64,000 bases of DNA from Candidatus Latescibacterota bacterium (GTDB lineage Bacteria; Latescibacterota; UBA2968; UBA8231), in contig OZ253462.1 of NCBI GenBank assembly GCA_965261395.1, positions 4,576,001 to 4,640,000 on the forward strand, read 5' to 3'. Of the stretch, positions 41,886-61,563 are shown piece by piece (the stretch's first letter is position 1; each line of letters starts with the position of its first letter). The notes beneath the pieces are model-generated. The model was not told where the DNA came from, did not search any database, and saw only the letters and a list, made by a program, of their open reading frames with translations. The position numbers were made by a program, and so were the translations under genes.

Positions 41886-43541
41886 TCAATACACCACCCC
41901 GACCAACCCCGTCCACACATCCCCGCGATCGGCATCGATTTCAACGCGCAGCAGATAATGCCCAGGCGCAACCAGCCGCCCACTGTCGTCGCGGCCATCC
42001 CACGCCAAGCGCTTGCGCCCGGCCGCAGCCGGTTGCCCATCCCACAGCACCCGCCGCTGCCGTCCCGCCAAGTCGTACAGGGCCACCGTCAACGCCTGCG
42101 GATGCTGCACCTTGGCCAAGTCGATCTGAATTTGAGCCGCACCCGAGGCCGCGTTGAAGGGATTGGGCCGCACCGACACGCCAGCGCGCGGCAGGGCGCG
42201 GGAGACCACCCCCTCTCCTACCAAAGTCCAAGCATCTTCCTCCACCGGCCGTGCGTTCTGCCAATCCACGCTATCGCCCAAGGCAACCGCCGCCCGCACC
42301 GCCAGCGTCGGCCGCAACAGCACCGACGCAAATTCCACTTCTAGCCGCCCCGACCGGCTCACGTGGTGCTCGGCCCCCAACACCAACCGGAGACCCTCAT
42401 CATCCCATCCGACCTCATACCCATCCTCCGGCAGCACCAACCCATCGAACCTCACCTCCTGCACCACGCCCGGCAGGCCGATATGCACTCGATCAAAGCC
42501 GAGATCTTCCGGGCCAATTTCCACATCGAAGGTATAAGTGAACACGGTCTCCTCGCCCAACACCGGCCGCGGCGGCGCAATGGCCCCGGCCACCGCACGG
42601 GCAAAAAGCTGTTCCCCAAAGGCGACCGCCACCTGCATGAGCCTCGGCGTGCTAAGTGGATCGCGGGTTTCCATGACCGCCCGATACTGCAAAAACCGCG
42701 CTGGCTCCGGCTCGGTCAGGGCCACGCCATCGCCGACTGCCGCCAAGTCCCAAGCTGGCACCCGGTGCCACTCAGGCCACGCCTCCCCGTCGGCTGAGGT
42801 GCGGAACTGCACCCGCAAGATCGTGCCCGGCGGCGTCTGTCCAGCAAACCACACCCGCCCCAAGTTGACCGGCTGCCCCGCGTCGAACACCACCGACTCA
42901 AACGTCCCCTCAGACCGGAAACCCTCGCCGAACACTTCCACCTCGCCGATGGAGACCCAGTTGGGTGGATCTTCCCGCGTCAGCCGCAGGCGCACAAAGC
43001 GGCCCAATACCGGCAGCGGTGCCCCGTCCGCGGCCTGCTCAATCCACGTCGAATCCACCGACGTATCCACCGTCGGGCGGGTGTTTTCCGCCTGTTGCGC
43101 CACCAACACCCAATCGTCGGGCGTGGCCTCCCGTGCCACTTCGAGGCGGTAGCCTTTGACGAAAAACAGCGGCCGTTGGGCCACCGTCTTGCCCGGCAGC
43201 AGGCGCACTTGACCCACGCCGCGGTCGCCGCCCAAGTCGATCCGAATCCACTTGCCCAACACTTCGACTTCGTTGTCAAAGCGCCACTCCGTGTCGGTAT
43301 TGCCGTCGGTGACGCTGCGGCTGCCTCTCAAGGTGTTCGGCCCGGAGGAAGCCACCGCATCCAAGGCGAGGTTGACCCCGCGAAACGAGGCCAGCGACAC
43401 CCGCCCCAAGCTATCGATCTCCGTGCCGGAAAAAAGGCCGCCTGAGAAACTGTCGGCCCCCTCCTGCACCCACTCGCCAGCCATCGCCGGAACGCAGCAC
43501 AGCACGGCCAAGCCGAGCAAATAACCCATCGCGTTAATCAT
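41886..43541 (-). CDS. Secreted discoidin-like protein with C-terminal FlgD Ig-like domain
   Basis: Signal peptide; WIRIDLG..GRFVRL..IGEVEVFG; PNPFN..YDLAGR..WDGRDDSG..PGHY. Confidence 0.8.
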   Translation of the reverse strand: MINAMGYLLGLAVLCCVPAMAGEWVQEGADSFSGGLFSGTEIDSLGRVSLASFRGVNLALDAVASSGPNTLRGSRSVTDGNTDTEWRFDNEVEVLGKWIRIDLGGDRGVGQVRLLPGKTVAQRPLFFVKGYRLEVAREATPDDWVLVAQQAENTRPTVDTSVDSTWIEQAADGAPLPVLGRFVRLRLTREDPPNWVSIGEVEVFGEGFRSEGTFESVVFDAGQPVNLGRVWFAGQTPPGTILRVQFRTSADGEAWPEWHRVPAWDLAAVGDGVALTEPEPARFLQYRAVMETRDPLSTPRLMQVAVAFGEQLFARAVAGAIAPPRPVLGEETVFTYTFDVEIGPEDLGFDRVHIGLPGVVQEVRFDGLVLPEDGYEVGWDDEGLRLVLGAEHHVSRSGRLEVEFASVLLRPTLAVRAAVALGDSVDWQNARPVEEDAWTLVGEGVVSRALPRAGVSVRPNPFNAASGAAQIQIDLAKVQHPQALTVALYDLAGRQRRVLWDGQPAAAGRKRLAWDGRDDSGRLVAPGHYLLRVEIDADRGDVWTGLVGVVY

Positions 43542-43842
43542 CTATCCACTCCTCCAATCCCCAAATTTCTAACGTGTTCTGTATGAAGAAAGGGAGCTGC
43601 TGGAAGCGCAACGTCAGGCCCAGTTGCCCCAAACGGATCGCGTCTTGTTTGAGCAATGGATTGAGGCTCCGCACTTCGTTGGCCACGATGCAGACCTCTG
43701 TTATCCCCTCCTCGACCTGCGATTGTAGGAAATCATACAGGATGTCGAACTCCGTCTTGTTGATATACCCCATGAATTCGATGGTTAAGGTCTCGCCGCA
43801 GCGATTTAATGTGTTAATGCGTATCATGCTTATGCCTTCCAA
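43534..43842 (-). CDS. STAS-like domain protein
   Basis: About 100 aa with STAS-like pattern and FIQNTLEIWGL end; coupled to both neighbours. Confidence 0.55.
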   Translation of the reverse strand: MEGISMIRINTLNRCGETLTIEFMGYINKTEFDILYDFLQSQVEEGITEVCIVANEVRSLNPLLKQDAIRLGQLGLTLRFQQLPFFIQNTLEIWGLEEWIDD

Positions 43843-43844: not shown

Positions 43845-45200
43845 TCAGTCCGCATCGACGAATTGACGTGCCAATGATCCCTCTCGCGTCAACGCGTACA
43901 CCACGACATTGACGCCCAAATTATAGACCAATGGCTCCTCGGCACCGACGAGAAACGGGCTGCCGACTTCGTTCTTCGCTACCGACGAATCCCGCTCCTG
44001 CTTGGCGACTCCCGCCCAGTAATCGGCATAGCCGCGCATCGAATACACCCCCACCAACTGCTCCCCTACCATGATGCCCTCCAAATAGTCCGGGGTTCGT
44101 GGCGGTCGGTCTTGTCCAGAACTAAACATAGATTCTATATCGCGTATCCCGAGCGGCAGGCTGTTTACATCGTAGAAGCAATGATAGATCGGATGGGTTA
44201 GCTCTAGGCGTTTAAACTGCCAGTCCTTCCATTCTTGATAGCCCTCCGCTTGAAAGCTGGCGCGAATGAGGGAACGCACCGCTGGAACGTCTAATTCGGC
44301 GTCCCTATAATTCACATTGGACCACAAAAGGCGGACAATATCCACAAAAAGGAAGCCGCCGCCGGTCAAATACGCCCCAAAATTGGCCGCCTCGCTGTCC
44401 GTGAACTCAAAGGGGGTATTGACGGTCATGAGAACGAAGGGGACTTGCAAAAGCTGCGGATCGTCGAGCCGAACCGCGTCGCGTACTTCGACGTGGACTT
44501 GCGTACTGGCGACCATCTTATCGGCCAACCCTTGCAGCATCCGCCGTTCCACCAAGCGGCGCGGCATCTGGTGATGCCAGCGCACTCGTATGTTTTCAGC
44601 CTGTTCACTGTACTCAGCCCGTTCGATGGAAGGGCTGTAGATGCCGGACATATAGAGAAAGCCCTTGAGCTTGCGCCGATCTTTTGGATCGACTACCACC
44701 ATCGCCCGGTGCCGACCCGTGTCCATCGCCTGCACATCCATCAACTCCAAGGCCAAATCAATCTCGTCCGCGCCCTGCCGCGTCCCTTCCAACGCCCCAA
44801 CGCGCAGGTGCGGGCCAATATGCCGAGCGGGGAAATCCGGCACGGGCAGCGCCAGCCGATCCGGCAGCGACGCCGTCGGCAGCCGAAGAGCCGAGGTCTT
44901 AAAGACCGGCAGCGGACGCGACGCCGACGGAGCCGGCCGCATGGCCACGACCGGGGCGGCTTGGAGCGCCGGACGGCGCACTAAGGGACGCTGCATGGGG
45001 CGTTGCCGGCGGGTGAGAGTGCGCTGTGGCGGCGGCCGTTTGGTAAACTTCACCATGATCGGCAGTAGGACGGGGAATTGCGTAACCCGCTCGCGGTGCG
45101 TGATCCCGAAAATCACCAGCAGATGCAAGGCCAACGACAACGCCAAGCAGCTTTGCAGTTTTCTATTTTTTTGGAACGGTACTTTCCAAGGTCGTCTCAT
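43845..45200 (-). CDS. DUF4159 domain protein with N-terminal membrane anchor and Pro-rich linker
   Basis: SLALHLL; YLTGGGFLFVD, HPIYHCFYD, LEGI, LGVNVVVYALT. Confidence 0.8.
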   Translation of the reverse strand: MRRPWKVPFQKNRKLQSCLALSLALHLLVIFGITHRERVTQFPVLLPIMVKFTKRPPPQRTLTRRQRPMQRPLVRRPALQAAPVVAMRPAPSASRPLPVFKTSALRLPTASLPDRLALPVPDFPARHIGPHLRVGALEGTRQGADEIDLALELMDVQAMDTGRHRAMVVVDPKDRRKLKGFLYMSGIYSPSIERAEYSEQAENIRVRWHHQMPRRLVERRMLQGLADKMVASTQVHVEVRDAVRLDDPQLLQVPFVLMTVNTPFEFTDSEAANFGAYLTGGGFLFVDIVRLLWSNVNYRDAELDVPAVRSLIRASFQAEGYQEWKDWQFKRLELTHPIYHCFYDVNSLPLGIRDIESMFSSGQDRPPRTPDYLEGIMVGEQLVGVYSMRGYADYWAGVAKQERDSSVAKNEVGSPFLVGAEEPLVYNLGVNVVVYALTREGSLARQFVDAD

Positions 45201-46276
45201 CTGCTCAGGTCCCTCCGCAAAGGATGGAAATCGAGCATTGACGCACGTTCCGCCATTTCGTCGCTCGAGATGGTCTGATTCGTTTCGTGAAATGCCATCA
45301 GGCTATGGAGGCGCATCTCCTCTGGTATTAAGGGGTCCGGCCATATAGAAGCAAACCAAAATTCGATTAGATACAGTCGAAGATCCTCATTCTTTTCCAC
45401 CATGTGGGCTATAGACCTACGCCGTTTTTGCGATTCCGCAAACGCATTTTGTGGGCTGAAAAAGTCGTGGTGATGATACAGGTGATAGCTCTGCGCCTTG
45501 GCGGCAAAGCGCATTTTATACCCATTCTGCATGAGGCGATAGGCCAAATCCCATCCTTCAGAATGGGGCAGCTCTTCGTCAAATCCACCGACCTCCTCAA
45601 GAGCGACACGCGGGGCCGAAGCATTATGTGGATAAAAACTGATCCAACCTATCGGCGAGTCGGGCACTTGGTCAGAGAGTACTTGTACTTGGTCTTGCAT
45701 TAATTTTAATTCTGGGAAGGGATACCCGCCCTCTCGGGCTAACGGGGCGATCGCATCAAAATCAGACTGTATCATAGCTTCGGTCACCCGAAATTCGTCT
45801 GGGTACGTACGCATAATATGAGCAACCGATGCTGGAACGTCCTCCCAAGGAAGGCCACTGCGCGGGTCCTGGACGTACTCCAAACGAGGCAAGCAATACT
45901 GGAATCCGCTCGTTACGCCGTTGTAGCGCTGAAATAGTTGCCAATGTTGAGCCAACCAATCGGGACCCGGTAGCGCGTCTCCGTCCAAGAAGGCGATCAA
46001 ATCTCCCCGCGCTTCCGCTATACCGATATTCCGCGCTCGGCAGCGTCCTACATTGGTATTCAAGGGAATGACTTTTACGGGAATTTGCTCATACGTACGC
46101 AGAAAATTCCCTGTTCCGTCCGTGCTGCCATCGTCCACCACGATAACCTCAAACGGGCCTTCAGAGAATGTTTGAACGGCCAAGCCGCTTAAAACGAGCC
46201 GCAACCGATCGCGCTGATTGTGTGCGGCGATGACGACAGAAATATCCATTGAGCTAGCTCCCTTATATACATTCAA
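45197..46276 (-). CDS. Glycosyltransferase family 2
   Basis: SVVIAAHN, VVDDGSTD, ARNIG, FLDGD, VGGFDE..EGWDLAYRL. Confidence 0.9.
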   Translation of the reverse strand: MNVYKGASSMDISVVIAAHNQRDRLRLVLSGLAVQTFSEGPFEVIVVDDGSTDGTGNFLRTYEQIPVKVIPLNTNVGRCRARNIGIAEARGDLIAFLDGDALPGPDWLAQHWQLFQRYNGVTSGFQYCLPRLEYVQDPRSGLPWEDVPASVAHIMRTYPDEFRVTEAMIQSDFDAIAPLAREGGYPFPELKLMQDQVQVLSDQVPDSPIGWISFYPHNASAPRVALEEVGGFDEELPHSEGWDLAYRLMQNGYKMRFAAKAQSYHLYHHHDFFSPQNAFAESQKRRRSIAHMVEKNEDLRLYLIEFWFASIWPDPLIPEEMRLHSLMAFHETNQTISSDEMAERASMLDFHPLRRDLSR

Positions 46277-48749
46277 AGACCAAGCGGCATTCCTCTCTCA
46301 GAGAATCCGGCCGATGTATACGATGTATACGAGGAATGCCATTACCCGTCTCTTCGTACACAACGGCTTGTAGCACCTCCTTGGCAGCAGAGTTTGAGCA
46401 TACGATGTGGAAGCAGTCCAAATGGCCAAAGAAAAAGTCAAAATAGGGATCGCTATTCTCCAAGACCTTATGACGTAATGCCTCATTTTGCACATTGGCC
46501 TCCGTTAGTGCTGGAGTACCAATACTGATACCGTGAAATTCCACGGGGATCCATCCGAGATCCGAGATGAAGATCTCAGCCCACGTGTGCCCAAATACCA
46601 CTTCATCATACGTTCGGTTCTCGTACCTGCTCGGCCCTAGAGGATTGACCGCTATGGCTCCGGCTTGCTCGCGAGCTGGTATTTTTAGCAGGCGACAAAG
46701 GGCAGTGAAGGCACGAGCCAACGTAATACAATGTCCGCCGTCGTCCGCTAGTGCTTTTAGGGTGCTACACCGATAGCATTGGCAGCTATCTTTGGTTTTC
46801 TTGAAATGCTTGTTTTTGGCCAAATGGTAGTATAACGAACGGGCTTTTTCTAAATCGCTCGATTCTCCGTCTATATTCACATCCTCCCAACAACTGCAGA
46901 CGAGTGGATGTTCTGCCAAGGATTCATCAACAGTAGTATAGAGCTCAAACTCTTCGGGTGTGAGCACCTCTGTTGCTCGACCCATCGCTCTCGCATAAAC
47001 CGTCAATTCGCACACGTAAGAAAACGTATATGCCTCGCCGGAGCTAAAATCACAAACAGCAGGATAGCCATAGAAAAAACCCGAATGCGGCAAAAAGTGG
47101 CTCTGGATTTCCGTAGGATAGCAAGATAGCAGTTTTATATCCTTCTGAAAGTCGGTGGTTATTGGGTAGGGCAGAAATATCCGCACATTATGTGTTGTAT
47201 CCTCGGTAGCAGATAGAGTGAAGGTATAAGTCAGCCGCAAGCGCTGACTCTCCATAGCGGGATGAAGCGCACCATTTTTTTTGTTAATGAAGAACGAACG
47301 CATCTCCTCACGCGCCTCGTAATCACACGCAAAAAAGCGAGCGTCGTTGTCGTAGAGCCAGTTCCACGAATCAAGGCGATCGTACCATATCCCGTCTTGT
47401 TTCACTTCATGCGGCATCTGGCTATTTTGCCCGTTTTCGAGCATCTCTTCAATTTGCTCGTCATTGAGCACCGTGCTCAACGACAACTGCCGGGCAAAGT
47501 CGCGTTGGCTCATCTGGTAATACGGATCGAGCCGGCCTTCTTCAGTGCGACTCATCCAGTACCCATCAATTACATCTGCGACGCGATTCGCGTCCTGCCA
47601 TTCTCGTATATCGGCAGCAAAAGCACGGCATCGTCTAGCGAATATCGCATAGTGGTTTAACAGCCCCTCGATACTTTGGACGAGAGCCGTCGGTCGGGTG
47701 AAGTCTCGGTAGCTCAATTTGATACCTAGCCCTAGTGCTTGCAGGCGGTCGATAAAATACTCTTGAGTAAAATTCGTGGGAAGCCCAATGACTGGTATTC
47801 CCTTGAACAGAGCTTGGTAGAAGAAACCGTGATCCCCGCCGCCAGCAAAGACAGCCGCTTGGGAGGCGGCCTGCCGCAAAAAACTCGGATCGACGATCTC
47901 GCAGTTTTCTATTGGGTCGATACGCACTCCAACAGGTGGAACCACCCACTGCCGAATCCCTTGCATCCCCAGCTTTTGCACGGCCTCTTGAATAAAGGGC
48001 CAATCGGCCCCCAGCGTTCTGAGATCCCAGTACACCCCCTCCCGCTCCACATCGCCTTGCTCCTCTGCATCAAGCCCCTCAAGCAGCGGTCCTACAAAGG
48101 AGTAGTTGGCAGGCGTCTCCTGTCCCAGTGGATGAACCGCTGGAATATCGCAGAGCAGATACATTTCCCCGAATGTCGTCCCATAAGTCCATTCTCGATG
48201 TGAAGCACGTTCGATTATGTCCTCCCAAGTACGCACAAACTCAGGCGAGAGAATAGGGCAAGAGTATTCGGGTATGTTATATGCCGACGTTATCCAAACC
48301 ACATCAAGCCCTTCCAGTGCCGCAGCCAAGCGCAGCGTGGGACGGGAATCTACGATAGCGAGGTCAGGCTTCAGGCGGGCAATCAACGCTCGCTCGGCTT
48401 CCACGCTCTGATGGATGAACGAATCGTAGTCCGCCTCATTCGTTCCAAAATCCAGTACTGCTCCCAAGTCTTGTATCGGCGTGGCGAGGTCGTGCAGCGG
48501 GAAATCCTCTTGCCGGATTTGGTCGGCAAACGAGCCAGTGCCAGCAAAATCGACGCTGTATCCTCGGCGACGGAGCGTCGTACCCACCACCAAAGAACGA
48601 TGCGCGGAAACGCTATCAAAGCCGTGAAAAAAGATCAGTATTGAAACTCTGTCCCGACCTAGACGACGCGAGCGTTCTTTTTCCTCAAGACGTCTGATGA
48701 CCTTGAAGAGCCTAGCTACGGTCCGCTGCCGTATTGCGTTGAACATCAT
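46263..48749 (-). CDS. GT-B glycosyltransferase-like domain fused to transglutaminase-like domain
   Basis: N-half LRRRGYSVDFAG, PDLAIVD, FVGPL, GIPVIGLP...LGLG; C-half GGHCITLARAFTALCRLLKIPAR and GHTWAEIF..GWIPVE. Confidence 0.8.
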   Translation of the reverse strand: MMFNAIRQRTVARLFKVIRRLEEKERSRRLGRDRVSILIFFHGFDSVSAHRSLVVGTTLRRRGYSVDFAGTGSFADQIRQEDFPLHDLATPIQDLGAVLDFGTNEADYDSFIHQSVEAERALIARLKPDLAIVDSRPTLRLAAALEGLDVVWITSAYNIPEYSCPILSPEFVRTWEDIIERASHREWTYGTTFGEMYLLCDIPAVHPLGQETPANYSFVGPLLEGLDAEEQGDVEREGVYWDLRTLGADWPFIQEAVQKLGMQGIRQWVVPPVGVRIDPIENCEIVDPSFLRQAASQAAVFAGGGDHGFFYQALFKGIPVIGLPTNFTQEYFIDRLQALGLGIKLSYRDFTRPTALVQSIEGLLNHYAIFARRCRAFAADIREWQDANRVADVIDGYWMSRTEEGRLDPYYQMSQRDFARQLSLSTVLNDEQIEEMLENGQNSQMPHEVKQDGIWYDRLDSWNWLYDNDARFFACDYEAREEMRSFFINKKNGALHPAMESQRLRLTYTFTLSATEDTTHNVRIFLPYPITTDFQKDIKLLSCYPTEIQSHFLPHSGFFYGYPAVCDFSSGEAYTFSYVCELTVYARAMGRATEVLTPEEFELYTTVDESLAEHPLVCSCWEDVNIDGESSDLEKARSLYYHLAKNKHFKKTKDSCQCYRCSTLKALADDGGHCITLARAFTALCRLLKIPAREQAGAIAVNPLGPSRYENRTYDEVVFGHTWAEIFISDLGWIPVEFHGISIGTPALTEANVQNEALRHKVLENSDPYFDFFFGHLDCFHIVCSNSAAKEVLQAVVYEETGNGIPRIHRIHRPDSLREECRLVFECI

Positions 48750-48757
48750 TTTGTCCT

Positions 48758-49963: not shown

Positions 49964-49984
49964 ACCTCGCAGTGCCCTCCCCGG

Positions 49985-51066: not shown

Positions 51067-51084
51067 CGCGTATCTTTCCTTTCC

Positions 51085-52846: not shown

Positions 52847-52892
52847 GCCGTCTTATCCTCGTTCGAGTCAAATAGCTCAAAAGAATGTCCTC

Positions 52893-53744: not shown

Positions 53745-53805
53745 CTCTTTGCCTCCTTCGTGGCAGTACGCCCGCGGCTTGGTGCCGCTACGGTCCTGGA
53801 AGACC

Positions 53806-54798
53806 TCAAGGCAGCTTCGTCGTCTTTTTCGCTTCCACCTGCCCGTCAATTTCGACCTTATAGATATACACCCCGGCGGCCACGTCTTTGCCTACCTCGT
53901 CGCGGCCATCCCAAGTAAAACGATGACTGCCCGCCTGAAGCGGCCCGTCCCACAACTGCCGCACCCGATGACCCAACACGTCGTATACGGCCAACGACAC
54001 CCCCGCTGCGTCCTTGGCCAAATCAAGAGGGAGCACGACCGCCGGATTGAACGGATTGGGGTAGCTGTCGCCGAGCCCATGCTGCGCCAGTCGGCCTACC
54101 GCCGCTGGCGTCAGCACCGCGGTCATCTGCGCCGACTCGGCCTCCGAACAGGGGGTGGAGGAGCAGTCGCAATTTCTCAAATAAATGTCGCCGCGCGCGT
54201 CATAGTACGTGGTGCAGTGCCGATACGGCTCGGTCGAGTTAAACTCCGCGCAATCGTCGAAGTAGCTGCACTCTGTTTCTTGGTTGAAGCAACCATCGGT
54301 CGGCCCGGCGATCTCGGTCAGCTGCTCTACCTCCGAACAGGGCGTGGAGGAGCACTCACAAAATTCTCGAAAATAAATGTCGCCGCGGGCGTCATAATAC
54401 GTGGTGCAGTGCCGATACGGCTCGGTCGAGTTAGACTCCGCGCACCCGCTGTGGTGGCTGCACTCAATTTTTCGGGTCAGCACGATGGGCGCGGTCGGCT
54501 GCTCGGACTCCAAACAAGGCGTGGAGGAGTACCAGCAATCTACTATGTAGAAGGTGCAGTCCGCGTCCAAACCATAGGTGCAGTAGCGATATACCCCCTT
54601 CGGCTCCGCCAGCGCACAATCCGCGCTAGGGCTGCACGCGGTCCAAGTGTACGGGCACTTAGTGTCGGCTTCGGCTTCCGCGGTCCCGAGCAGAACCACA
54701 AGCCCGGCAAGGGCACGGACGATCCACCCGAGTCCCAGCCCCTGCCGCATCGGAGCCAAGCCACTGGACGAGCCGATAAATTCACACAATCTGTTCAT
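53806..54798 (-). CDS. Conserved-leader Cys-rich repeat protein with FlgD-like C-terminal domain
   Basis: Leader MNRLCEFIGSSSGLAPMRQGLGLGWIV..AEAEA; 3 Cys modules ending SSTPC.E.E; FlgD tail. Confidence 0.85.
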   Translation of the reverse strand: MNRLCEFIGSSSGLAPMRQGLGLGWIVRALAGLVVLLGTAEAEADTKCPYTWTACSPSADCALAEPKGVYRYCTYGLDADCTFYIVDCWYSSTPCLESEQPTAPIVLTRKIECSHHSGCAESNSTEPYRHCTTYYDARGDIYFREFCECSSTPCSEVEQLTEIAGPTDGCFNQETECSYFDDCAEFNSTEPYRHCTTYYDARGDIYLRNCDCSSTPCSEAESAQMTAVLTPAAVGRLAQHGLGDSYPNPFNPAVVLPLDLAKDAAGVSLAVYDVLGHRVRQLWDGPLQAGSHRFTWDGRDEVGKDVAAGVYIYKVEIDGQVEAKKTTKLP

Positions 54799-54899
54799 CT
54801 CTTGCCTCCTTCGTTGCCCAGTATTCCTGCGGCCCGGTGGCTATGGTACTGAGCAAGGGCCGGTACGAGTGCGTAAGGCCGCATAGACTCATCCTCCCC

Positions 54900-57083
54900 T
54901 CAAGGCAGCTTCGTCGTCTTCTTGGCTTCTATTTGTCCGTCCACCTCAACCTGATAGATATACACCCCAGCGGCCACCGCCTTACCCGCCTCGTCACGGC
55001 CATCCCACACAAACCGATGGCTCCCCGCCCCCAGCGGCCCCTGCCACACCTGCCGCACCCGACGCCCTAACACATCGTACACCGTCAGCGACACTCCCGC
55101 CGCGTCCGTCGCCAGATCAAGAGGGATCACCACAGCCGGATTGAACGGATTGGGGTAGCTATCGCCGAGCCGATGCTGCACCGGCCGCGCTACCACTGGC
55201 GTCATCACGGCGGTCGGCTGCTCGCCCAGAGAGCTCTTGAGCACATGTACGCCGCCCAATATCGGATCTAACACCACCAAGTCGACATCGCCGTCGCCAT
55301 CCATATCCCCAGACAGCACGTATCGCCCACTGCCCTCCAGCCGATGCCGCTCCCCTTCTTGAGTCGGGTTGACACGCCCGCCCCATTCGACAAACACCCC
55401 AAAACCCGAAGCGCGATCCCCACCTATAAACACCCAGTCGTCCACCCCATCGGCATTCAGGTCGCGCACCAATACCGGCGAGCGCCGCAACAGCCGATCA
55501 TCATACAGCACCTCGGCTTCTATGCGGTCCCCGGCTCCCTTGCTCTGCAAGACGATCCCCTTGCTCCCTTCGATCAGATCGAATGTGAACTCGGTGAGGA
55601 AATCCACCTGCCCATCGCCATCAAAATCGCCCACCCCTAACGGATCCATCCATTCATCGAATTCAAATACCTCGCCGATCTGAAGCTCCTCGCCCAAGGC
55701 CCCCACAATCCACCTGTTCTCCCGCCCAGCGAGCGATGTCCAGAACACGTCTAGGGTCCCATCGCTGGTAAAGTCGCCGATCTGAACGGGCGAATAGTTT
55801 TTGGAAGCCGCCACCTCTTCGGAGGTCCACACGCCCTGTTCGACCTCCCACACCGCTAACGTGCTTGAAAACTCCGCCGTACCCGCGATCACTTCCTCTG
55901 AAGAGCCTTCAACCGTAGTCCCCTTTACAAATAATTCGACCCGGCCGTCGCCATCCCAATCTACTACACTATGGATCTGTCTATCGACCTGCACGAGCAC
56001 CTCGATTTGGAGTTCCGGCCCGATAGACCAAACTTCTGTCTTGGGCTCACGGTTGCTTCTTGATATCGCGATTTCGTTTTTACCATCGCCCGTCAAATCA
56101 GCACCAAGCGCCTTTAAGACAACCACTGAGGAGACGGTTATCCCTCCAGTTATACTACCCTCCCCTGTGGCCGCTACTGCTACTTCCTCTATAACAGGCC
56201 CACGTTCCAAGGCACCTCGCCCGTCATTGAGGGCCATCAGCCAGCCCGCTTTAGACTCATCCCCTCCCGGCGATAGTGTTTTCGTTTGCGTTTCCCAGAG
56301 GCCGAACAGGTCTAAGTCGCCATCGCCATCCAAGTCCGTCAACACACCGCCCCCCCTCTCCCCTAGATACCCTCCTCCATACCCTCCATGAAGTGCTTCC
56401 CCTACGCCCAGCGCAATCGGATAGAAAACCGGCGGCGCAAAAAGGCCGGCCCCAGCAAAGCCAAAGTAGTACTCTACGGACGGCGGCGGCAGTTCCCCCT
56501 CTATCAACTCTTCCACGCCGGTCAACTCGATCAAGTCGATCTCAAACGCCTCAACCCCCTCGGTAGCCGAATCAGAATCCAGTATAAAACTTAGCTGAAT
56601 ATTTTTTAACAGGCCCTCCCATCCGTCTTGATCCGCCAGCGAGAACACCACTTCCTGCCACTCGGTGGTATAGACTATTTGTTGTACGAGGTCATCTTCA
56701 AGTTTTTCATAACTAAAAAAATCAAAACCTGAAGAGCTTTCCCACTCTATCCAAAAAGTACCTTCCGTAGGGCGGTCATGGATGGTGCGGAACCGGACGC
56801 GGACTTGGTCGAACAAGCCCGAATCGTACCCGATGGTCGAAGAAATCACTTCGACACCCGGGCTGGAGGCGTACAAACTATTGGTGACGGCGGGATCAAC
56901 CCTGATCCGCCACACACCGTCTTCGACCATCGATGGAAACTGGTGGAATTCACGCGCCCCCCCCCATGTAAGCGCTTCTTTGGCGGTCCACCCTTGCGTC
57001 GTCCCATCGTCAAAATCCCACTTGATCGCCTCGGCGAGACTACTCCACAGCACAATCCATATGACAATGGCGAATTTCAGCAT
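54900..57083 (-). CDS. Secreted FG-GAP/VCBS repeat protein with FlgD-like C-terminal domain
   Basis: Sec signal; DLDGDGDLD-type repeats; FlgD tail nearly identical to those of the two downstream genes. Confidence 0.85.
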   Translation of the reverse strand: MLKFAIVIWIVLWSSLAEAIKWDFDDGTTQGWTAKEALTWGGAREFHQFPSMVEDGVWRIRVDPAVTNSLYASSPGVEVISSTIGYDSGLFDQVRVRFRTIHDRPTEGTFWIEWESSSGFDFFSYEKLEDDLVQQIVYTTEWQEVVFSLADQDGWEGLLKNIQLSFILDSDSATEGVEAFEIDLIELTGVEELIEGELPPPSVEYYFGFAGAGLFAPPVFYPIALGVGEALHGGYGGGYLGERGGGVLTDLDGDGDLDLFGLWETQTKTLSPGGDESKAGWLMALNDGRGALERGPVIEEVAVAATGEGSITGGITVSSVVVLKALGADLTGDGKNEIAISRSNREPKTEVWSIGPELQIEVLVQVDRQIHSVVDWDGDGRVELFVKGTTVEGSSEEVIAGTAEFSSTLAVWEVEQGVWTSEEVAASKNYSPVQIGDFTSDGTLDVFWTSLAGRENRWIVGALGEELQIGEVFEFDEWMDPLGVGDFDGDGQVDFLTEFTFDLIEGSKGIVLQSKGAGDRIEAEVLYDDRLLRRSPVLVRDLNADGVDDWVFIGGDRASGFGVFVEWGGRVNPTQEGERHRLEGSGRYVLSGDMDGDGDVDLVVLDPILGGVHVLKSSLGEQPTAVMTPVVARPVQHRLGDSYPNPFNPAVVIPLDLATDAAGVSLTVYDVLGRRVRQVWQGPLGAGSHRFVWDGRDEAGKAVAAGVYIYQVEVDGQIEAKKTTKLP

Positions 57084-57351: not shown

Positions 57352-57633
57352 TTAGCAAGCGCAGCAGTACCAAGCAGAGCACTGGATAGAACAATTCGAA
57401 TCCAGCCGACAGTCCCTACACTTGCACTTCTGTCCCCCGCCCGTGGCCTCGTCGCAACCTGAGCTAGACACCGGACCCTCTCTCCATGAGGTATCGTCGC
57501 AGGCAGCAGCTTCTCGCGCCCCGAGCAGGACGGCGACCCCCGTGAGGGCACTGATGACCCAACCCAACCCCAACCCCTGCCGAGCCGGAGCCAAACCGCT
57601 CGAGGACGTGAAAAATTCCCGAATATTGTCCAT
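57352..57633 (-). CDS. Conserved-leader Cys-rich peptide precursor A (10 Cys core)
   Basis: SD AAGGAG; 44-aa leader shared with 3 neighbours; 49-aa core. Confidence 0.85.
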   Translation of the reverse strand: MDNIREFFTSSSGLAPARQGLGLGWVISALTGVAVLLGAREAAACDDTSWREGPVSSSGCDEATGGGQKCKCRDCRLDSNCSIQCSAWYCCAC

Positions 57634-57686: not shown

Positions 57687-57721
57687 GGGGGCCGGCTTAA
57701 TCGCTACGATTAAACCGGCCC
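57687..57721 (-). terminator. Intrinsic terminator-like hairpin between the peptide genes
   Basis: GGGGCCGGCTTAATCG-CTA-CGATTAAACCGGCCC, followed on the minus strand by a CTTTT pyrimidine run. Confidence 0.55.
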
Positions 57722-57778: not shown

Positions 57779-58060
57779 TCAAACGCAGCAGTAGTTCCCT
57801 CCACACCTTGTCACGCAGTTCGAGTCCAGCCAACAGTCCTGACACATCTTCGGCAATCTCCCGTTCGTAGCCTCGTCGCAACCTGCGTTGTACCCCTTAT
57901 CCCTTGTCCAGCGTCTTTCGTCGCAATCGGCAGCAGCTTCTCGCGCCCCGAGCAGGATCGCGACCCCCGCGAGAGCACTGATGACCCACCCGAGCCCCAA
58001 CCCCTGCCGAGCCGGAGCCAAACCGCTCGACGAGCCGATAAATTCCCGTAACATAGTCAT
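57779..58060 (-). CDS. Conserved-leader Cys-rich peptide precursor B (8 Cys core)
   Basis: Paralog of 57352-57633; shared GCDEAT.G and C.DC.LDSNC...C...YCC. Confidence 0.85.
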   Translation of the reverse strand: MTMLREFIGSSSGLAPARQGLGLGWVISALAGVAILLGAREAAADCDERRWTRDKGYNAGCDEATNGRLPKMCQDCWLDSNCVTRCGGNYCCV

Positions 58061-58198: not shown

Positions 58199-58214
58199 TG
58201 CAAGTTTCTTGCCA
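58199..58214 (-). promoter_or_regulatory. Sigma-54 (-24/-12) promoter
   Basis: Minus strand TGGCAAG-AAAC-TTGCA vs consensus TGGCACG-N4-TTGCW with exact spacing; adjacent to a sigma-54 activator gene. Confidence 0.8.
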
Positions 58215-58336
58215 AAGATCAGGACCTATACAAAAAATCCTTTAGGATGAACCTAAAGGATTGAAAAACATGATACTTAAAATTATGGGACGGGTCTTTC
58301 TATGACACGCGGCCTCGCCATCGGCGCAAGGCTTTC

Positions 58337-58390
58337 CACGATTTTTCCGTGGATTTACACGGCTTTTTCGTGGATTTACACGACTTTCGT
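58337..58390. promoter_or_regulatory. 21-bp tandem repeat array, candidate enhancer (UAS)
   Basis: CACGATTTTTCCGTGGATTTA / CACGGCTTTTTCGTGGATTTA / CACGACTTTCGT; the full units contain the dyad CACG-N7-CGTG. Confidence 0.65.
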
Positions 58391-58428: not shown

Positions 58429-61400
58429 CTACTTCTTCGGGCGTCGTACCCCGTATTTCTGCATGCGGTAACGCAGCTTCTCCGGGTGCATACCCAACAA
58501 CGCGGCGGCACCATGCACACCATAGATCCTCCAGTGGGTCGCTTGCAGGGCCGCTAGGATTTGCTGCTTTTCGTCCACCTCTTCGACCGGCGGCGCTTCG
58601 TCCGCGTCCCCGGTTCGTCGTTCAGTCGGCGGGTGCTCCCCATCCCCGGCGGGCGGCGCAACCGACGGCAACGACACATCCTCCACCCGCATGACGCCAT
58701 CTTCGCACAGCAAGACCGCGCGGTGGATCAAGTGCTCTAACTCCCGCACATTCCCCGGCCAAGCATACCCCTGCAAGTGCGCGACCACCCCCTCGTCTAG
58801 CGTCGGCACCGACCGCTTTAGGTCTTGGGCGAACCGCGCCACAAAATACGCCGTCAAAGTCGGTATATCCTCTCGCCGCTGCCGCAGCGGCGGAAGCGCT
58901 AGCGTGAAGACGCTCAGACGGTAGAACAGGTCTTCGCGGAACGTGCCCTCCTGTACATCCTGCCGCAGATCGCGGTTGGTCGCCGCCACCACCCGCACCT
59001 CCACGGTTACAGGATGCTCGCCACCGACGCGGGTCAGGGTCTTCTCCTCTAAAATGTGCAGCAGCACCCGCTGGGCTTCTAACGGCAAATCGCCGACTTC
59101 GTCCAGAAAGAGGGTGCCGCCATCGGCTAGTTCAAAGCGCCCGAGCTGGCGGGTGTCTGCCCCGGTAAAGGCCCCTTTCTCGTGGCCAAACAGCTCGCTT
59201 TCGACCAGCCCGGCGGGCAGCGCCCCGCAATTAACTTGGATAAAGGGCCGCTTGCGGCGGGTGCTTGTTTCGTGGACGGTCCGAGCGAGCAAACCCTTGC
59301 CGGTGCCGGTCTCGCCCAGCACCAGCACATTCATATCGGTCTCGGCTACCCGCGAGACCTGTCTCATTACCTCGTGCATGACTCGACTGTGGCTCTGCGC
59401 CATATGGTCAATAGGCCGGAGTGTCCTTTCGAGGGCGTCGATGCGCTCGGTTTTGGCGTCGGGGAGGACCTGAATCTTCAAGCCGACTACCCCGGACCTC
59501 AGGCCATCCCGGTCTATGGTCTGCACCTCAAAGCGGTAGTCACCCACCGGCAAGGCGTTATACGCCACTACATTGGCGGTGGTGAACGCGCTCCACTGTT
59601 CTGCTGGGCCGTAGCCTAACAGGCGGTGGCTATAGCGCATCAGCTTCGCGCCGGTGCGGAAGCTGATACCTTGGAAGCGAACGCGAATTTCCGGGGTGTG
59701 CTCTATACAGGATACGGCTTCGGGCGCAGCAAAGAGGCTCCCGGCCATCACCTCGCGGATCACCAAGCACGGAGACGTGTCGCCGGGCTGGTAGGCGACC
59801 AGTCCGGCCCGCGTCCCAAACCACAGTTGGCCATGGCGGTCGCATTGGATAGCCTCGACTACGTTTCCGAGAGCAGATGGTCCTAAGCGGATGCTTTGAA
59901 AGGTCTGGCCGTCGTAGCGGATCACTCCCCCGCCGCTGGTCCCGATCCAAACATTGCCCTGCCGGTCGGCCGCCAGCGCCAAGATGCCATTGGCCACCAG
60001 CCCGGAATTATTGGCGGTAAAGTGGCCCACCTGCCCCGACGAGCGGTCGAGGATGAAAAGCCCCTTAGCCGTACCTATCCACAAGGTATTTTGATACTCC
60101 CACAAGACATTGACATAGGCGATGGTCTCCGCCTCGGCCATATCCACCGGGCGAAATTGACCGTCTTTGTACCAATAGAGCGCCGGTATTCTTGCGTAGA
60201 AACCAATCCAGAATACCCCGTTTTGGTCTTGCAGCAAGGAACGACACTCGTCGCCTGCCCACTCGTCGAAGGGGATGAAGCGATTGGCTTCTATCCAGCC
60301 GAAGTGGCCCTGGAGCGTGCCAATCCATATACGCCCTTGCTGATCTGTGCACAGCCCGGTGATTTTTTCGGCGTGGGTCTCTTCAGTCACCGTGATCACT
60401 TGCGGCGTTTGGCCCCCCCACTTGTACACCCGGCCGGTGTCCCCACCACTCCAAACCTGCCCCTCTTCATCCACCACCATCGCCGAAACGGTTTCATCCG
60501 TATTGAGCGGACAGATTTGGCCCTCTTCCATATAGGCCATACCGCCCATCGTGCCGATCCACATCCGTCCCCCATGGTCTTCTCCCAAATGGCAAATCTC
60601 GCGGTCGGGCAGGCCGTCGGCTTCCGTGTAGCACCGGATGCTGGCCGGATCGCAAAAAATCAGCCCGCCGCCCCAAAGCCCGATCCAGATATTGCCCTCG
60701 CGGTCCTCGTAGGTCAGGCGCGTACCCGAAAAGTCTGCATCCGGCAGGGAGACGGAAAAATGATGCCACTCTTGATCATTGTGTACAACCACCCCTCGGC
60801 GTGCCAGCCAGAGTCGGTCCCCATCGTCAGCCCGCACGTGCCGCACCCCGTTCTGCGTGCCCCTATCGGTCTTATGGCCCACATGGATGAATGCAAACTG
60901 CTCGTCTCGCGGATCGTAGCGGCCAATAAAGGTTTCGGGGGCCGTGTACAGGAAGGCGATCCACAGATGGCCGGAAGAGGTTTGGGCGAATTTCCAAGGA
61001 TGTTGAATCGCCTCCTCGTCAATACCCATGCACCGCCCATCTAAGCTGATGATGCCTCGGTCCCACGTCGCCAGCCAGGTAGTACCCGCCGCGTCGGTGG
61101 CCATATCGTACACCCGCCCCAAAGGTTGGCCGCCAACTTCGGTTATGAGCTTTGTGCAGCGATCTTGGGCAAACCAAGCCACGCCCGCGCCAGTCAACGC
61201 CACAATCGAACCATCCGGCTGGACTTGCAAACCCATGATCTCGTTGGAAGGCAGGCCGTGCTCAGTGGTGTACACCTGAAAGCCGCGCCCGTCATAGGCG
61301 GCAATCCCCCCGCCGAACGTGCCGAACAGCAGCCGCCCGTCGGCTTCCTCGGCAATGGCCATGACCGTCAGATTGGGCAGGCCGTCTTTGAGGCCAAAGT

Positions 61401-61563
61401 TATCAAAATGGGCGCTGTCGAACCGGCTGACGCCGCCGTCGGCCGTGGCGATCCAGAGAAAGCCCTGGCGGTCTTGGTAGATGTCTTCCACGTGCATCCC
61501 AGCCAGCCCATCAAAGACCGTGTACTGGCTGCTCAACACGTGCTCAAAGGATATGTCGCTCAT
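58429..61563 (-). CDS. Sigma-54 enhancer-binding protein with N-terminal two-component-regulator beta-propeller and Y_Y_Y domain
   Basis: DGL..D..G.LWI.T..GG repeats; GETGTGK, ESELFGHEKGAFTGA, LFLDEVG, WPGNVREL, Fis HTH. Confidence 0.92.
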   Translation of the reverse strand: MSDISFEHVLSSQYTVFDGLAGMHVEDIYQDRQGFLWIATADGGVSRFDSAHFDNFGLKDGLPNLTVMAIAEEADGRLLFGTFGGGIAAYDGRGFQVYTTEHGLPSNEIMGLQVQPDGSIVALTGAGVAWFAQDRCTKLITEVGGQPLGRVYDMATDAAGTTWLATWDRGIISLDGRCMGIDEEAIQHPWKFAQTSSGHLWIAFLYTAPETFIGRYDPRDEQFAFIHVGHKTDRGTQNGVRHVRADDGDRLWLARRGVVVHNDQEWHHFSVSLPDADFSGTRLTYEDREGNIWIGLWGGGLIFCDPASIRCYTEADGLPDREICHLGEDHGGRMWIGTMGGMAYMEEGQICPLNTDETVSAMVVDEEGQVWSGGDTGRVYKWGGQTPQVITVTEETHAEKITGLCTDQQGRIWIGTLQGHFGWIEANRFIPFDEWAGDECRSLLQDQNGVFWIGFYARIPALYWYKDGQFRPVDMAEAETIAYVNVLWEYQNTLWIGTAKGLFILDRSSGQVGHFTANNSGLVANGILALAADRQGNVWIGTSGGGVIRYDGQTFQSIRLGPSALGNVVEAIQCDRHGQLWFGTRAGLVAYQPGDTSPCLVIREVMAGSLFAAPEAVSCIEHTPEIRVRFQGISFRTGAKLMRYSHRLLGYGPAEQWSAFTTANVVAYNALPVGDYRFEVQTIDRDGLRSGVVGLKIQVLPDAKTERIDALERTLRPIDHMAQSHSRVMHEVMRQVSRVAETDMNVLVLGETGTGKGLLARTVHETSTRRKRPFIQVNCGALPAGLVESELFGHEKGAFTGADTRQLGRFELADGGTLFLDEVGDLPLEAQRVLLHILEEKTLTRVGGEHPVTVEVRVVAATNRDLRQDVQEGTFREDLFYRLSVFTLALPPLRQRREDIPTLTAYFVARFAQDLKRSVPTLDEGVVAHLQGYAWPGNVRELEHLIHRAVLLCEDGVMRVEDVSLPSVAPPAGDGEHPPTERRTGDADEAPPVEEVDEKQQILAALQATHWRIYGVHGAAALLGMHPEKLRYRMQKYGVRRPKK

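Follow-up and report, generated by a model that had tools for sequence, protein, structure and literature searches.

A candidate leader-processing and flavin-linked redox system for cysteine-rich mini-proteins in Latescibacterota

We analyzed a 64,000-nt window (bases 4,576,001–4,640,000 of one 6.55-Mb contig, OZ253462.1; GC content 0.59) from the genome of a Candidatus Latescibacterota bacterium. Positions in the cluster are given within this window. On its minus strand, from 61563 to 41886, the open reading frames (ORFs) and their translations form a near-unbroken series of genes (Table 1), which includes two short and two long genes with a common N-terminal leader, a putative A24-family peptidase, a putative flavoprotein, and two thioredoxin-fold proteins (redoxins). 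We propose that these genes form a dedicated pathway for hypervariable secreted Cys-rich mini-proteins (whose precursors carry the leader), and that this pathway would combine cleavage of the leader with flavin-linked disulfide folding. We give this proposal a probability of roughly 0.55. Judging from the loci that we compared, the conserved core is the precursor (or precursors), the A24 protease, the flavoprotein with its CxxC motif, and the two redoxins, which are TlpA/ResA-like.

Genes were identified by Pfam and NCBIfam scans of the window's proteins. A first-pass annotation, made from the sequence alone, had described the same run of minus-strand genes. Every ORF that it named is present at its position, and 15 of its 17 elements are borne out; the other two are the GT-B half of a fusion protein, which is weakly supported, and a “STAS” gene, which was not confirmed (both are discussed below). 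Pfam or NCBIfam matches agree with its calls for the activator (Sigma54_activat, Reg_prop, and HTH_8 at 58429–61563), the FG-GAP/FlgD protein, the two Cys-rich/FlgD proteins, the A24 peptidase, the two redoxins, the TPR protein, the family 2 glycosyltransferase (GT2), and the DUF4159 protein. The genes from 52846 to 43534 do abut or overlap, as it had said: the gaps are at most 21 nt and the overlaps are 4–14 nt. We corrected the start of the second Cys-rich gene to an internal ATG at 53744, so this gene does not overlap the first Cys-rich gene. No family was matched in these scans by the two 93-aa ORFs, the 196-aa ORF at 52256–52846, or the 102-aa ORF at 43534–43842. Three points go beyond that annotation: the orphan state of the A24 peptidase, the flavoprotein's own CxxC, and the pairing of precursor genes with FG-GAP genes.

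Table 1. Features of the cluster, from 61563 down to 41886. HTH, helix-turn-helix; HMM, hidden Markov model; FMN, flavin mononucleotide; T9SS, type IX secretion system.
Feature	Position	Strand	Evidence
Sigma-54 activator (enhancer-binding protein, EBP): N-terminal Reg_prop/Y_Y_Y propeller sensor, AAA+ domain, Fis-type HTH	58429..61563	-	Sigma54_activat E 2.7e-69, Reg_prop E 1.4e-40, HTH_8 E 1.7e-6, AAA_lid_14
Candidate upstream activator sites: 21-nt direct repeat, 2 copies, 21-nt spacing	58330..58371	-	Repeat search and reading of the sequence (putative function)
Terminator-like hairpin (11-bp stem) and T-run after activator gene	58236..58262	-	
–24/–12 sigma-54 type promoter, TGGCA-N6-TTGCA	58199..58214	-	GG and GC at canonical spacing
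Precursor B, 93 aa: 44-residue leader and 8-Cys core	57779..58060	-	
Strong terminator-like hairpin directly 3' of precursor B	57689..57721	-	15-bp stem, 9 GC pairs, T-run
Precursor A, 93 aa: same leader and 10-Cys core	57352..57633	-	
FG-GAP beta-propeller protein, ordinary signal peptide, FlgD_ig/T9SS-like C-terminal domain	54900..57083	-	FlgD_ig E 1.5e-12, FG-GAP_3 E 1.1e-11
Leader-bearing 330-aa protein: tandem Cys-rich modules and FlgD_ig/T9SS-like tail	53806..54798	-	Leader HMM E 1.3e-18
Leader-bearing 283-aa protein (from internal ATG): Cys-rich modules and T9SS type A sorting domain	52893..53744	-	Leader HMM E 1.3e-13; TIGR04183 26.9 bits vs. cut-off 23
Predicted membrane-anchored RnfG/NqrC-fold FMN-binding protein, 196 aa	52256..52846	-	Fold, D-G-I-[ST]-G-A-[TS] motif, invariant CxxC (C105/C108)
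A24-family (prepilin-peptidase-type) polytopic aspartyl protease, soluble beta-rich insert at ~270–347	51085..52242	-	PF01478 36.8 bits vs. cut-off 26.5, E 5.6e-9, residues 22–123
Redoxin 1, membrane-anchored thioredoxin-fold, C-x-A-C	50512..51066	-	Pfam Redoxin 28.3 bits vs. 26.6
Redoxin 2, membrane-anchored thioredoxin-fold, C-P-Y-C	49985..50515	-	AhpC-TSA E 2.4e-19, 70 bits; Redoxin 50 bits
TPR protein, accessory	48758..49963	-	TPR_12 E 4.6e-52
828-aa protein: weakly GT1/GT-B-like N-terminal half and transglutaminase core, accessory	46263..48749	-	Transglut_core E 4.2e-13
GT2 glycosyltransferase, accessory	45197..46276	-	Glycos_transf_2 E 1.4e-27
DUF4159 protein, N-terminal hydrophobic segment, Pro-rich linker, accessory	43845..45200	-	DUF4159 E 4.7e-20
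Conserved 102-aa ORF, family not recognised	43534..43842	-	Orthologs with 68–80% identity in genomes G145 and G133
F5/8 type C (discoidin) protein, FlgD_ig-like tail	41886..43541	-	F5_F8_type_C E 5.1e-11; FlgD_ig 25.9 bits, just below cut-off

A conserved leader on hypervariable cysteine-rich proteins

A hidden Markov model (HMM) of the leader, built on residues 1–44 in 31 members of the family, was compared to 94,377 six-frame ORFs from the whole genome. It matched four ORFs, all in the cluster, with E values from 2e-29 to 1.3e-13; the next-best ORF had E = 0.089. The leader that the first-pass annotation had noticed on four genes is thus found on exactly four ORFs genome-wide. Between precursors A and B, the DNA for the leader is 86% identical, while the DNA for the core is 65% identical.

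With a word-seeded search, we obtained 151 relatives of precursor B. Among 31 aligned members of the family, 16 leader positions are invariant, and past the leader, only the cysteines are conserved. The mean pairwise identity is 0.80 in the leader versus 0.32 in the core, or 0.22 in the core if the shared cysteines are left out (465 pairs). A conserved leader followed by a variable core is what is expected for the precursors of RiPPs (peptides that ribosomes make and that undergo post-translational modification), and this pattern is present here. Using a profile search against 1.84 billion representative proteins, we found 160 clusters (at 50% identity) at E ≤ 1e-3, including 45 at E ≤ 1e-10. 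The strict motif F-x2-S-x-S-G is present in 88 of the 149 representatives that we read, and a relaxed form is present in 109 of them. Most of the 130 representatives of 80–130 amino acids have eight cysteines (65 proteins), ten (19), six (18), or twelve (4).

The leader has a fixed order of parts. A variable N-terminal stretch (0–30 residues) is followed by L-x-E-F-x2-S-x-S-G and by a short polar stretch that in most cases contains Pro and Arg. Then comes Gly or Ala, a Leu or Phe that opens a hydrophobic helix with a near-invariant Trp, and finally a near-invariant A-x-A. In 21 sequences from three tiers of relatives (described below), F7, S10, S12, and G13 are invariant, and L4, W25, and A44 are nearly so; distant members have variants of the leader such as F-x2-D-E-[ST]-G. 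As read from these alignments, the layout is that of a class III (prepilin-like) signal peptide with an A-x-A site added, and is unlike a RiPP recognition leader. We infer that it works like a class III signal. There are two candidates for the residue at which a class III signal would be cleaved: the invariant G13, and G20 at the start of the helix. G20 was ruled out as an obligatory cleavage glycine, as it is Ala or Val in one lineage.

Family models do not describe the precursors that we scanned. At E ≤ 10, Pfam gave a single chance-level match (ATP19, E = 0.28) for nine precursors and the 102-aa ORF, and no model in NCBIfam release 20 matches precursor A, the flavoprotein, or the DUF4159 protein. 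The relatives have the source name “hypothetical protein.” In the ESM Atlas, the clusters nearest to precursor B are also hypothetical proteins (scores of 0.83 and 0.81), which we treat as a lead only.

Linkage and co-occurrence across genomes

We compared the ORFs in 20 fetched regions to the proteins of the window by BLASTP. The core genes (A24, FMN protein, redoxin 1, redoxin 2, and precursor) are found together at three levels of identity to the window's proteins, at roughly 75–90%, 40%, and 30%, which we will call tiers 1, 2, and 3. In tier 1 (four genomes fetched), the whole operon is present, often with tandem cassettes of precursor and FG-GAP genes (at least six in G133). Tier 2 is a second system in the same genus, and often in the same genome. 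Its gene order is activator, A24, FMN protein, redoxin 1, redoxin 2, and precursor(s) with a variant leader, followed by FG-GAP, the fusion of a GT-B-like half with a transglutaminase (GT-TGase), and GT2; TPR is also there in most of the loci that we fetched. Tier 3 is from other genera (G102, G103, and G105). In G102 and G103, the genes for the FMN protein, both redoxins, the precursor, and A24 still lie next to one another; the locus in G105 (L046) has A24, both redoxins, and the precursor, with no match to the FMN protein. BLASTP found no homologs of the activator, GT-TGase, GT2, TPR, or DUF4159 proteins in the tier 3 loci, and FG-GAP genes were found only in G105.

A scan of the genome collection with the FMN protein as the seed gave 31 loci, all from Latescibacterota. 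Within 8 kb on either side of these 31 genes, A24 is present in 24 loci, a redoxin in 26, and a match to the leader HMM in 25. Some of the misses are at contig ends or are visibly truncated copies, and three of the loci have the FMN protein alone or with one redoxin. A scan of metagenomes with the alignment of the FMN protein found 3 loci. So far, the module has been found in Latescibacterota only. One relative of precursor B has the source label Gemmatimonadetes.

The leader, the A24 peptidase, and the FMN protein also co-occur genome by genome. The leader HMM has matches in 25 of 168 genomes from the phylum and in 20 of the 30 other genomes in the genus, with up to 19 matches per genome. Among the 31 genomes of the genus (including the one studied here), 17 have the leader, a cluster-type A24, and the FMN protein; one (an assembly of 340 contigs) has the leader and A24 only; three have the leader only; and ten have none of these. 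(Since the genomes are related to each other, these are not independent counts.) Even so, a pattern that is patchy and all-or-none, along with three diverged versions, argues for the module being a functional unit. The first-pass annotation had tied the leader to these enzymes and had suggested using a leader HMM to look for their co-occurrence in other genomes; A24, the FMN protein, and both redoxins are indeed linked to the leader at three levels of divergence, and the co-occurrence holds as well.

Could the linkage be meaningless? The four leader genes might be ordinary Sec-exported paralogs, alike because of recent duplication or gene conversion, while the enzymes serve other substrates. 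The leaders do have the normal n-h-c layout with A-x-A, the 86% identity of the leader DNA in the short genes (80% at third positions) fits gene conversion, and several relatives have a rearranged, partly decayed cluster. However, the leader motif persists in lineages in which the identity of the enzymes is down to 30% and the cores cannot be aligned. The module is together in 24–26 of the 31 loci, with co-occurrence across genomes, and we found no other class of A24 substrate (pilins or Flp) and no type IV machinery. So we consider this explanation, which the data already disfavor, to be very unlikely.

One protein from another source, P0228 (174 amino acids), has the C-terminal part of a tier 2 A24 joined in frame to a tier 2 leader. 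It is probably a frameshift or an assembly artifact, and it still shows that the two genes are adjacent in that source.

Putative roles of the peptidase, the flavoprotein, and the redoxins

A search of the whole genome with Pfam's A24 family matched one place, the cluster's gene (38.8 bits). D33 and G92-D93-A94-K95 are invariant in 10 homologs down to 30% identity, and so is a P-F-x-P block before the last helix; A24 proteases have two catalytic aspartates, with the second in a motif of the G-x-G-D kind, and we take D33 and D93 (of the G-D motif) to fill these roles. Compared to most of the family, the protein is long, and its AlphaFold2 model suggests about 10 helices and a beta-rich soluble insert at residues 270–347. 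With this low-confidence model, Foldseek found nothing at E ≤ 0.001 (FlaK, 3s0x_A, was at rank 24 with E = 2.3). A predicted complex of the A24 protein with residues 1–50 of the leader scored 0.26, versus a mark of 0.32 and without controls, and we count it neither for nor against binding.

The A24 peptidase is an orphan as far as these searches indicate, in that the machinery of type IV filaments was not found in its genome. The T2SSE ATPase (PF00437) had no matches at E ≤ 0.001 in this genome, versus matches in 13 of 14 control genomes; the T2SSF platform protein (PF00482) had no matches in this genome; and Flp_Fap had no matches in this genome or in any of the 168 genomes from the phylum. 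In the genus, 19 of the 31 genomes have A24. In 18 of these it is of the cluster type, and the 19th genome (G132) has a canonical copy on a contig with a fragment of T2SSE. T2SSE is above the cut-off in 8 of the 31 genomes, but in only 4 of the 18 with a cluster-type A24. Another genus, g18, has A24 homologs with about 30% identity, and some of these are in open frames of 440–570 amino acids beside a gene similar to redoxin 2 (for instance, in L049, which is G167:C1:2920000-2938000).

Flp/Tad systems have small prepilins and a TadV/CpaA-type A24 peptidase without an N-methyltransferase domain. Similarly, the cluster has a short leader with a conserved Gly before a hydrophobic helix, a nearby A24 peptidase without an N-methyltransferase domain, and precursors of under 130 amino acids, often with several paralogs per locus. 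So we considered that the leader proteins might be the subunits of a new Flp-like fiber or of a membrane-anchored surface array: the A24 peptidase would ready the helix for polymerization and the Cys-rich domains would face outward. The class III-like layout, with its short polar leader, invariant Gly, and conserved hydrophobic helix with an invariant Trp, would suit such a role; so would a dedicated A24 that lacks the methyltransferase domain (as in Tad systems), and it is unusual for a Sec signal to have so conserved a hydrophobic segment. However, the genome has no assembly ATPase, platform protein, or member of the Flp family. The leader resembles the Flp processing region (G and then XXXXEY), minus the glutamate at +5; there is no acidic residue at +5 after either candidate glycine. 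With this glutamate missing, no match to Flp_Fap, and no Flp_Fap in any of the 168 genomes, we rejected the idea that the leader proteins belong to the Flp family. Furthermore, the near-invariant A-x-A after the helix suggests that the helix is removed, and some of the proteins with the leader also have T9SS sorting tails. Other differences from Flp/Tad systems are the Cys-rich domain after the A-x-A and, in the predicted structure, the extra helices and soluble insert of the A24 peptidase. There is little chance, in our view, that the leader proteins form a fiber.

The processing of exported non-pilins by an A24 peptidase, which we propose, would have a parallel in archaeal class III signal peptides (for example, those of sugar-binding proteins, cleaved by PibD). 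Those substrates are archaeal and need a type IV-like system with an assembly ATPase; they are not known to have either redox partners or Cys-rich cores.

The first-pass annotation had called the 196-aa protein FMN-binding. The fold agrees with this (RnfG/NqrC), while Pfam has no match at E ≤ 0.01: FMN_bind (PF04205) scores 17.7 bits versus a cut-off of 22 (E = 0.03) and covers profile positions 52–70 only. The AlphaFold2 model (pLDDT 83.8) has an N-terminal anchor helix (residues 7–33). Among the matches listed by Foldseek for the PDB, ranks 1–18 are all RnfG/NqrC chains, and the best is 7zc6_G (E = 1.2e-5, probability 1.00). In 18 homologs, D165, G166, G169, and A170 are invariant, with Thr or Ser on the flanks, and the C-x-x-C (C105 and C108) is invariant as well. 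The cluster's protein matches the flavinylation motif, [S/T]GA[S/T], as it is defined in the sections available from a survey of flavinylated proteins (PMC8238504). Elsewhere, the genome encodes the flavin transferase ApbE (276 bits at 5615257–5616081) and one ordinary FMN_bind protein. Covalent attachment of FMN to the cluster's flavoprotein is predicted from these features.

The cluster's flavoprotein resembles the ApbE-flavinylated RnfG and NqrC proteins of that survey (PMC8238504, in the sections available) in its N-terminal anchor, fold, flavinylation motif, and the presence of ApbE in the genome. It is unlike them in that there are no Rnf or Nqr partner subunits in the cluster, and in having an invariant CxxC within the FMN-domain protein. 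The available sections of the survey (Meheust 2021, PMC8238504) describe one hybrid of thioredoxin-like proteins with flavinylation, which has DsbD, DUF3570, a Trx-like protein, and DUF4266, and which differs from the cluster. In the main text, “prepilin” does not occur and “peptidase” occurs once, in the title of a reference (PMC8238504).

Both redoxins have hydrophobic N-terminal anchors. The C-x-A-C of redoxin 1 is kept in 13 of 13 homologs; for redoxin 2, 12 of 14 homologs have C-P-[YH]-C and 13 of 14 have CxxC. When compared to the NCBIfam equivalogs for ResA, MauD, StoA, and DsbE, the redoxins are all far below the cut-offs (for example, 54.9 versus 170 bits for ResA and 45.7 versus 188.6 for MauD). 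Like MauD, ResA, CcmG, and TlpA, both are N-terminally anchored proteins with a thioredoxin fold and CxxC, and they are encoded beside a Cys-rich substrate. Unlike for those proteins, there are no genes for MauE, cytochrome c maturation, or methylamine dehydrogenase, and the partner is a flavoprotein rather than DsbD or CcdA. DsbA, DsbB, and VKOR had no matches in the genome at E ≤ 0.01. A DsbD_TM gene is present about 300 kb from the cluster.

The same parts could run with the electrons reversed. The FMN protein and the redoxins would then reduce or isomerize cysteines, as CcmG, ResA, or DsbD do, for example for metal binding. According to the sections available from PMC8238504, the RnfG/NqrC FMN domain moves electrons between the membrane and the periplasm in either direction. 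The best-scoring families for the redoxins (albeit below the cut-off) are ResA and MauD, oxidoreductases with a reductive or maturation role, and the genome does have a DsbD_TM gene. However, DsbD is far from the cluster, and the piece that is missing from the genome would be the oxidant, as DsbA, DsbB, and VKOR were not found. Also, the cysteine counts are mostly even, with 6, 8, 10, or 12 cysteines in 106 of the 130 representatives, which fits full pairing. Finally, C-P-Y-C is a comparatively oxidizing motif. We consider a reductive relay to be unlikely.

Our preferred proposal, of leader cleavage and flavin-linked disulfide folding, would run as follows. The activator and sigma-54 would switch on the first precursor gene, and the strong hairpin behind it would limit read-through. 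The precursors would enter the membrane through Sec, with the N-terminus in the cytoplasm. The A24 peptidase would recognize the invariant F-x2-S-x-S-G block and remove the cytoplasmic N-terminal part, much as prepilin peptidases act on class III signals. In the periplasm, the two redoxins would form disulfides in the Cys-rich domain or rearrange them. The CxxC and the covalent FMN of the flavoprotein would recycle the redoxins, and the electrons would pass to quinone or O2. The near-invariant A-x-A would then let signal peptidase I release the product. The paralogs with sorting domains, and the FG-GAP propellers encoded beside most of the short precursors, would leave through the type IX secretion system (T9SS).

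Several observations weigh against this proposal. The leader has more than one possible cleavage site: the invariant G13 is 7 residues before the hydrophobic stretch, and G20, which adjoins that stretch, varies. The A-x-A site by itself could account for export. The leader has no match to Flp_Fap (nine precursors from all tiers, at E ≤ 10), and the profile of the precursors matched no solved structure when compared to the sequences in the PDB (best E = 0.39); because of this, the likeness of the leader to Flp and class III signals rests on its layout and on a short motif. The sequences are compatible with either direction of electron flow (oxidase, or reductase or isomerase). The AlphaFold2 model of the A24 peptidase is poor (pLDDT 60.8). 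As for the linkage, one of the three copies of the module in G102 has no A24 within 8 kb, and three genomes in the genus have the leader but no A24. One of these (G120) is 75% complete; the others (G135 and G142) are single contigs whose leader matches are long FlgD-tailed forms or a fragment. A24 homologs with about 30% identity are present in 5 of the 10 genomes of genus g18, a genus in which we found no FMN protein and no leader; these homologs may be further diverged, or may reflect a different use of this subfamily of peptidases. Lastly, the module is missing from ten genomes of the genus and hence is not a general machinery for disulfides in the cell.

A bolder version of the proposal, about which we are doubtful, is that an A24 peptidase freed from type IV filaments, a flavinylated CxxC protein, and two thioredoxin-fold partners make up a self-contained pathway for export and oxidative folding, with a periplasmic flavin-driven generator of disulfides that replaces DsbA and DsbB. 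Its substrates would be a fast-evolving library of knottin-like mini-proteins with a class III-type leader, and each would dock on its own FG-GAP propeller (which is integrin-alpha-like), and the pair would be displayed or released via the T9SS. The flavin sulfhydryl oxidases Erv/ALR, QSOX, and Ero1 offer a functional analogy only. They place a flavin beside a redox-active CxxC and pass electrons from the thiols of substrates to a terminal acceptor, sometimes via thioredoxin-fold domains; they have an unrelated fold and hold FAD non-covalently, unlike the covalent FMN that is predicted here. These oxidases are not known in the bacterial periplasm.

By its sequences, the system is built from known kinds of parts. 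We found no description of it in the open-access papers that we searched or in NCBIfam, and the available sections of PMC12993501 and PMC12426817 do not mention it. If our proposal is correct, then A24 peptidases, which are generally assigned to type IV filament systems, extend to bacterial Cys-rich substrates that are not pilins and that have class III-like leaders, in a genome where no filament machinery was found. Also, the flavinylated RnfG/NqrC-fold CxxC protein and the two redoxins would be a concrete candidate for a flavin-based disulfide relay, one that can be expressed and assayed. This would address an open question, which is how disulfides form outside the cytoplasm in bacteria without DsbA, DsbB, or VKOR. 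And the family, which has 160 or more clusters (at 50% identity), reaches 19 copies in a genome, and mostly has eight cysteines, would be a natural library of stable mini-protein scaffolds with a defined toolkit for maturation.

Control, partner proteins, and accessory genes

The three hallmarks of a sigma-54 operon are all present: a –24/–12 motif, an EBP, and rpoN, which is elsewhere in the genome (Sigma54_DBD, 204 bits at 5074788–5075261). The sigma-54 control that had been claimed in the first-pass annotation is thus predicted from sequence, with the promoter before the first precursor and the EBP in the cluster. The –24/–12 element is 139 nt ahead of the start codon of precursor B, and the 21-nt direct repeat is roughly 120–170 nt upstream of this element. 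Orthologs of the activator (71–76% identity) are at the head of the cluster in G145, G141, G133, and G134. In related loci, a strict –24/–12 motif is found 136–208 nt upstream of 12 of the 73 leader genes (with overlapping loci counted repeatedly). The expected number is 0.006 per 300 nt, based on 36 motifs in 1.82 Mb on both strands. Because of this excess, we predict from the motifs that sigma-54 control holds for at least the first precursor in several tier 1 genomes; the motif was not seen for most of the cassettes.

Nine sequencing runs from three studies contain at least 0.87 of the sampled words. In two runs from one study that are filed as RNA, there are contigs over the A24, FMN-protein, and FG-GAP genes, and these are mostly 88–99% alike to the window. 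The contigs are from relatives and cannot show transcription (libraries of this kind can contain DNA), so we discarded them as evidence of expression. The precursor genes have little or no coverage in those two runs (with a threshold of 88%). Contigs from the same two runs also join 52880 to 54896, with 8 other letters in between, and skip both of the Cys-rich/FlgD genes; this arrangement is also found in relatives such as G133 and G134.

The fetched loci contain 54 distinct leader genes, of which 47 are short (under 140 amino acids). For 34 of these 47, the downstream neighbor on the same strand is a homolog of the FG-GAP/FlgD_ig protein, 19–359 nt away. The other downstream neighbors are another precursor (4 cases), A24 at about 1.46 kb (2), or GT-TGase (1); five precursors have no neighbor that was recognized, and for one no flank was available. 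Because of this pairing, we conclude from the gene order that precursor and propeller duplicate as a cassette in this genus, which hints at cassettes of the ligand–receptor kind. In distant genera, the precursor is instead followed by a conserved protein of about 320–337 amino acids that has no match in Pfam and is not FG-GAP (L044:9145-10119; also in L061, L066, and L067). This protein may be the functional counterpart of the FG-GAP partner. Among ten neighbors in L044, Pfam recognized only the A24 and an unrelated SDR.

As in type A cargo of the T9SS, domains similar to FlgD_ig or Por_Secre_tail are found at the C-termini of both long leader proteins, the FG-GAP protein, and the discoidin protein. 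The genome encodes SprA (SprA_N, 78 bits), and the product of 52893–53744 matches TIGR04183 above its cut-off, as type A cargo does. Pfam's Por_Secre_tail is below the cut-off for the FG-GAP protein and for both Cys-rich/FlgD proteins. Since SprA is present, it is plausible from these matches that the FlgD_ig/Por-type tails are T9SS signals. Unlike T9SS cargo, the short precursors have no tail; T9SS cargo normally has ordinary Sec signals rather than a conserved leader that is tied to an A24 peptidase.

Four of the cluster's other genes (GT2, GT-TGase, TPR, and DUF4159) are accessory, as is its sigma-54 control. The first-pass annotation had called one of them a fusion of GT-B and transglutaminase. 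The transglutaminase half matches Transglut_core; for the GT-B half, the sole match is to NCBIfam's MGT (macrolide-GT-like), which is below threshold (E = 2e-5, 23.8 bits versus a cut-off of 260). The GT-TGase adjoins both types of module, as an ortholog or as a paralog with 40% identity, and the DUF4159 gene is often duplicated beside FG-GAP genes.

The first-pass annotation had also suggested RiPP-like maturation with glycosylation or cross-linking, and we weighed this as another route: glycosylation (by GT2 and GT-B) and/or isopeptide cross-links (by the TGase) would be obligatory, the TPR protein would be the recognition scaffold, and A24 would be the leader peptidase. Besides the conserved leader and hypervariable core, it is in favor of this route that GT2, the GT-B-like/TGase fusion, and TPR are in the same tightly packed operon and that a paralogous set of GT, TGase, and TPR genes (40% identical) travels with the second type of module in the genus. 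Also, the first precursor gene has a strong hairpin after it, as RiPP structural genes commonly do. Of known systems, glycocins (sublancin-type) are the closest analogy; they have a leader and a Cys core, a GT2, and dedicated thioredoxin-fold or disulfide oxidoreductase genes in one operon, along with a C39 ABC exporter. However, the tier 3 loci keep the precursor, A24, FMN protein, and redoxins with no homolog of GT2, GT-TGase, or TPR by BLASTP. The GT-TGase family is also found in 33 of 76 genomes of the family, some of them without the leader or A24. GT2, GT-TGase, and TPR have no obvious signal or membrane segments, and so they would act on the precursor before export. No family of RiPP recognition element was recognized in the Pfam scans of the cluster's proteins, and there is no indication of which residue would be modified. 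The comparison with glycocins also shows differences. The leader here would be a membrane-inserting signal, not a double-glycine leader; GT2 is outside the conserved core; Peptidase_C39 is not among the families found in the Pfam scans of 18 proteins from 40.2–62.4 kb; and the A24 peptidase and the flavoprotein have no known counterpart in glycocin clusters. We consider this route improbable.

What stands of the RiPP claim is the conserved leader and variable core. Beyond proteolysis and disulfides, no modification can be deduced, so the label is uncertain. Glycosylation and cross-linking do not hold up as core steps: no homologs of GT-B/TGase, GT2, TPR, DUF4159, or the EBP were found by BLASTP in G102, G103, or G105, and we rejected the GT, TGase, and TPR genes as core genes as they were not detected in tier 3. 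Judging from these loci, GT2, GT-TGase, TPR, and DUF4159 cannot be essential to the core of our proposed pathway for leader cleavage and disulfide folding. They may decorate the products or the partner proteins in this genus.

The 102-aa ORF at 43534–43842 had been called STAS. We could not confirm this: there was no Pfam match at E ≤ 10, a search of the genome with PF01740 at E ≤ 1 missed the ORF, and an hhalign comparison to two genuine STAS proteins from the same genome gave a probability of 3.6% (E = 0.012 over 30 columns). The discoidin gene at 41886–43541 overlaps this ORF by 8 nt and keeps its position in G133 and G145. For these reasons, it is probably the last gene of the operon, which would then reach about 1.6 kb past 43534, where the first-pass annotation had ended it.

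The GC content is 0.50–0.57 within 44001–54000, versus 0.62–0.65 in the six preceding 2-kb bins. Some relatives have broken copies: L058 and L059 have a cut FMN protein, G146 has a split GT-TGase, and G130 has in-frame stops in some of its precursor copies. Given the shift in GC, the patchy distribution, and the broken copies, the cluster looks like a recombining and possibly mobile island.

Next to the cluster, a 525-aa ATPase of the AAA_22/AAA_35 type (40247–41824, minus strand) recurs beside the activator gene in G141 and G134. On the other, divergent side of the cluster is a gene with an SH3 domain (61759–62439). After it, at 62309–63999 on the plus strand, are two ORFs that we describe from their translations: one with ABC-ATPase signature motifs and a coiled-coil-rich one that looks similar to a periplasmic adaptor. 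Far from the cluster, the GC content dips to 0.43 at 2001–4000, versus about 0.6 around it.

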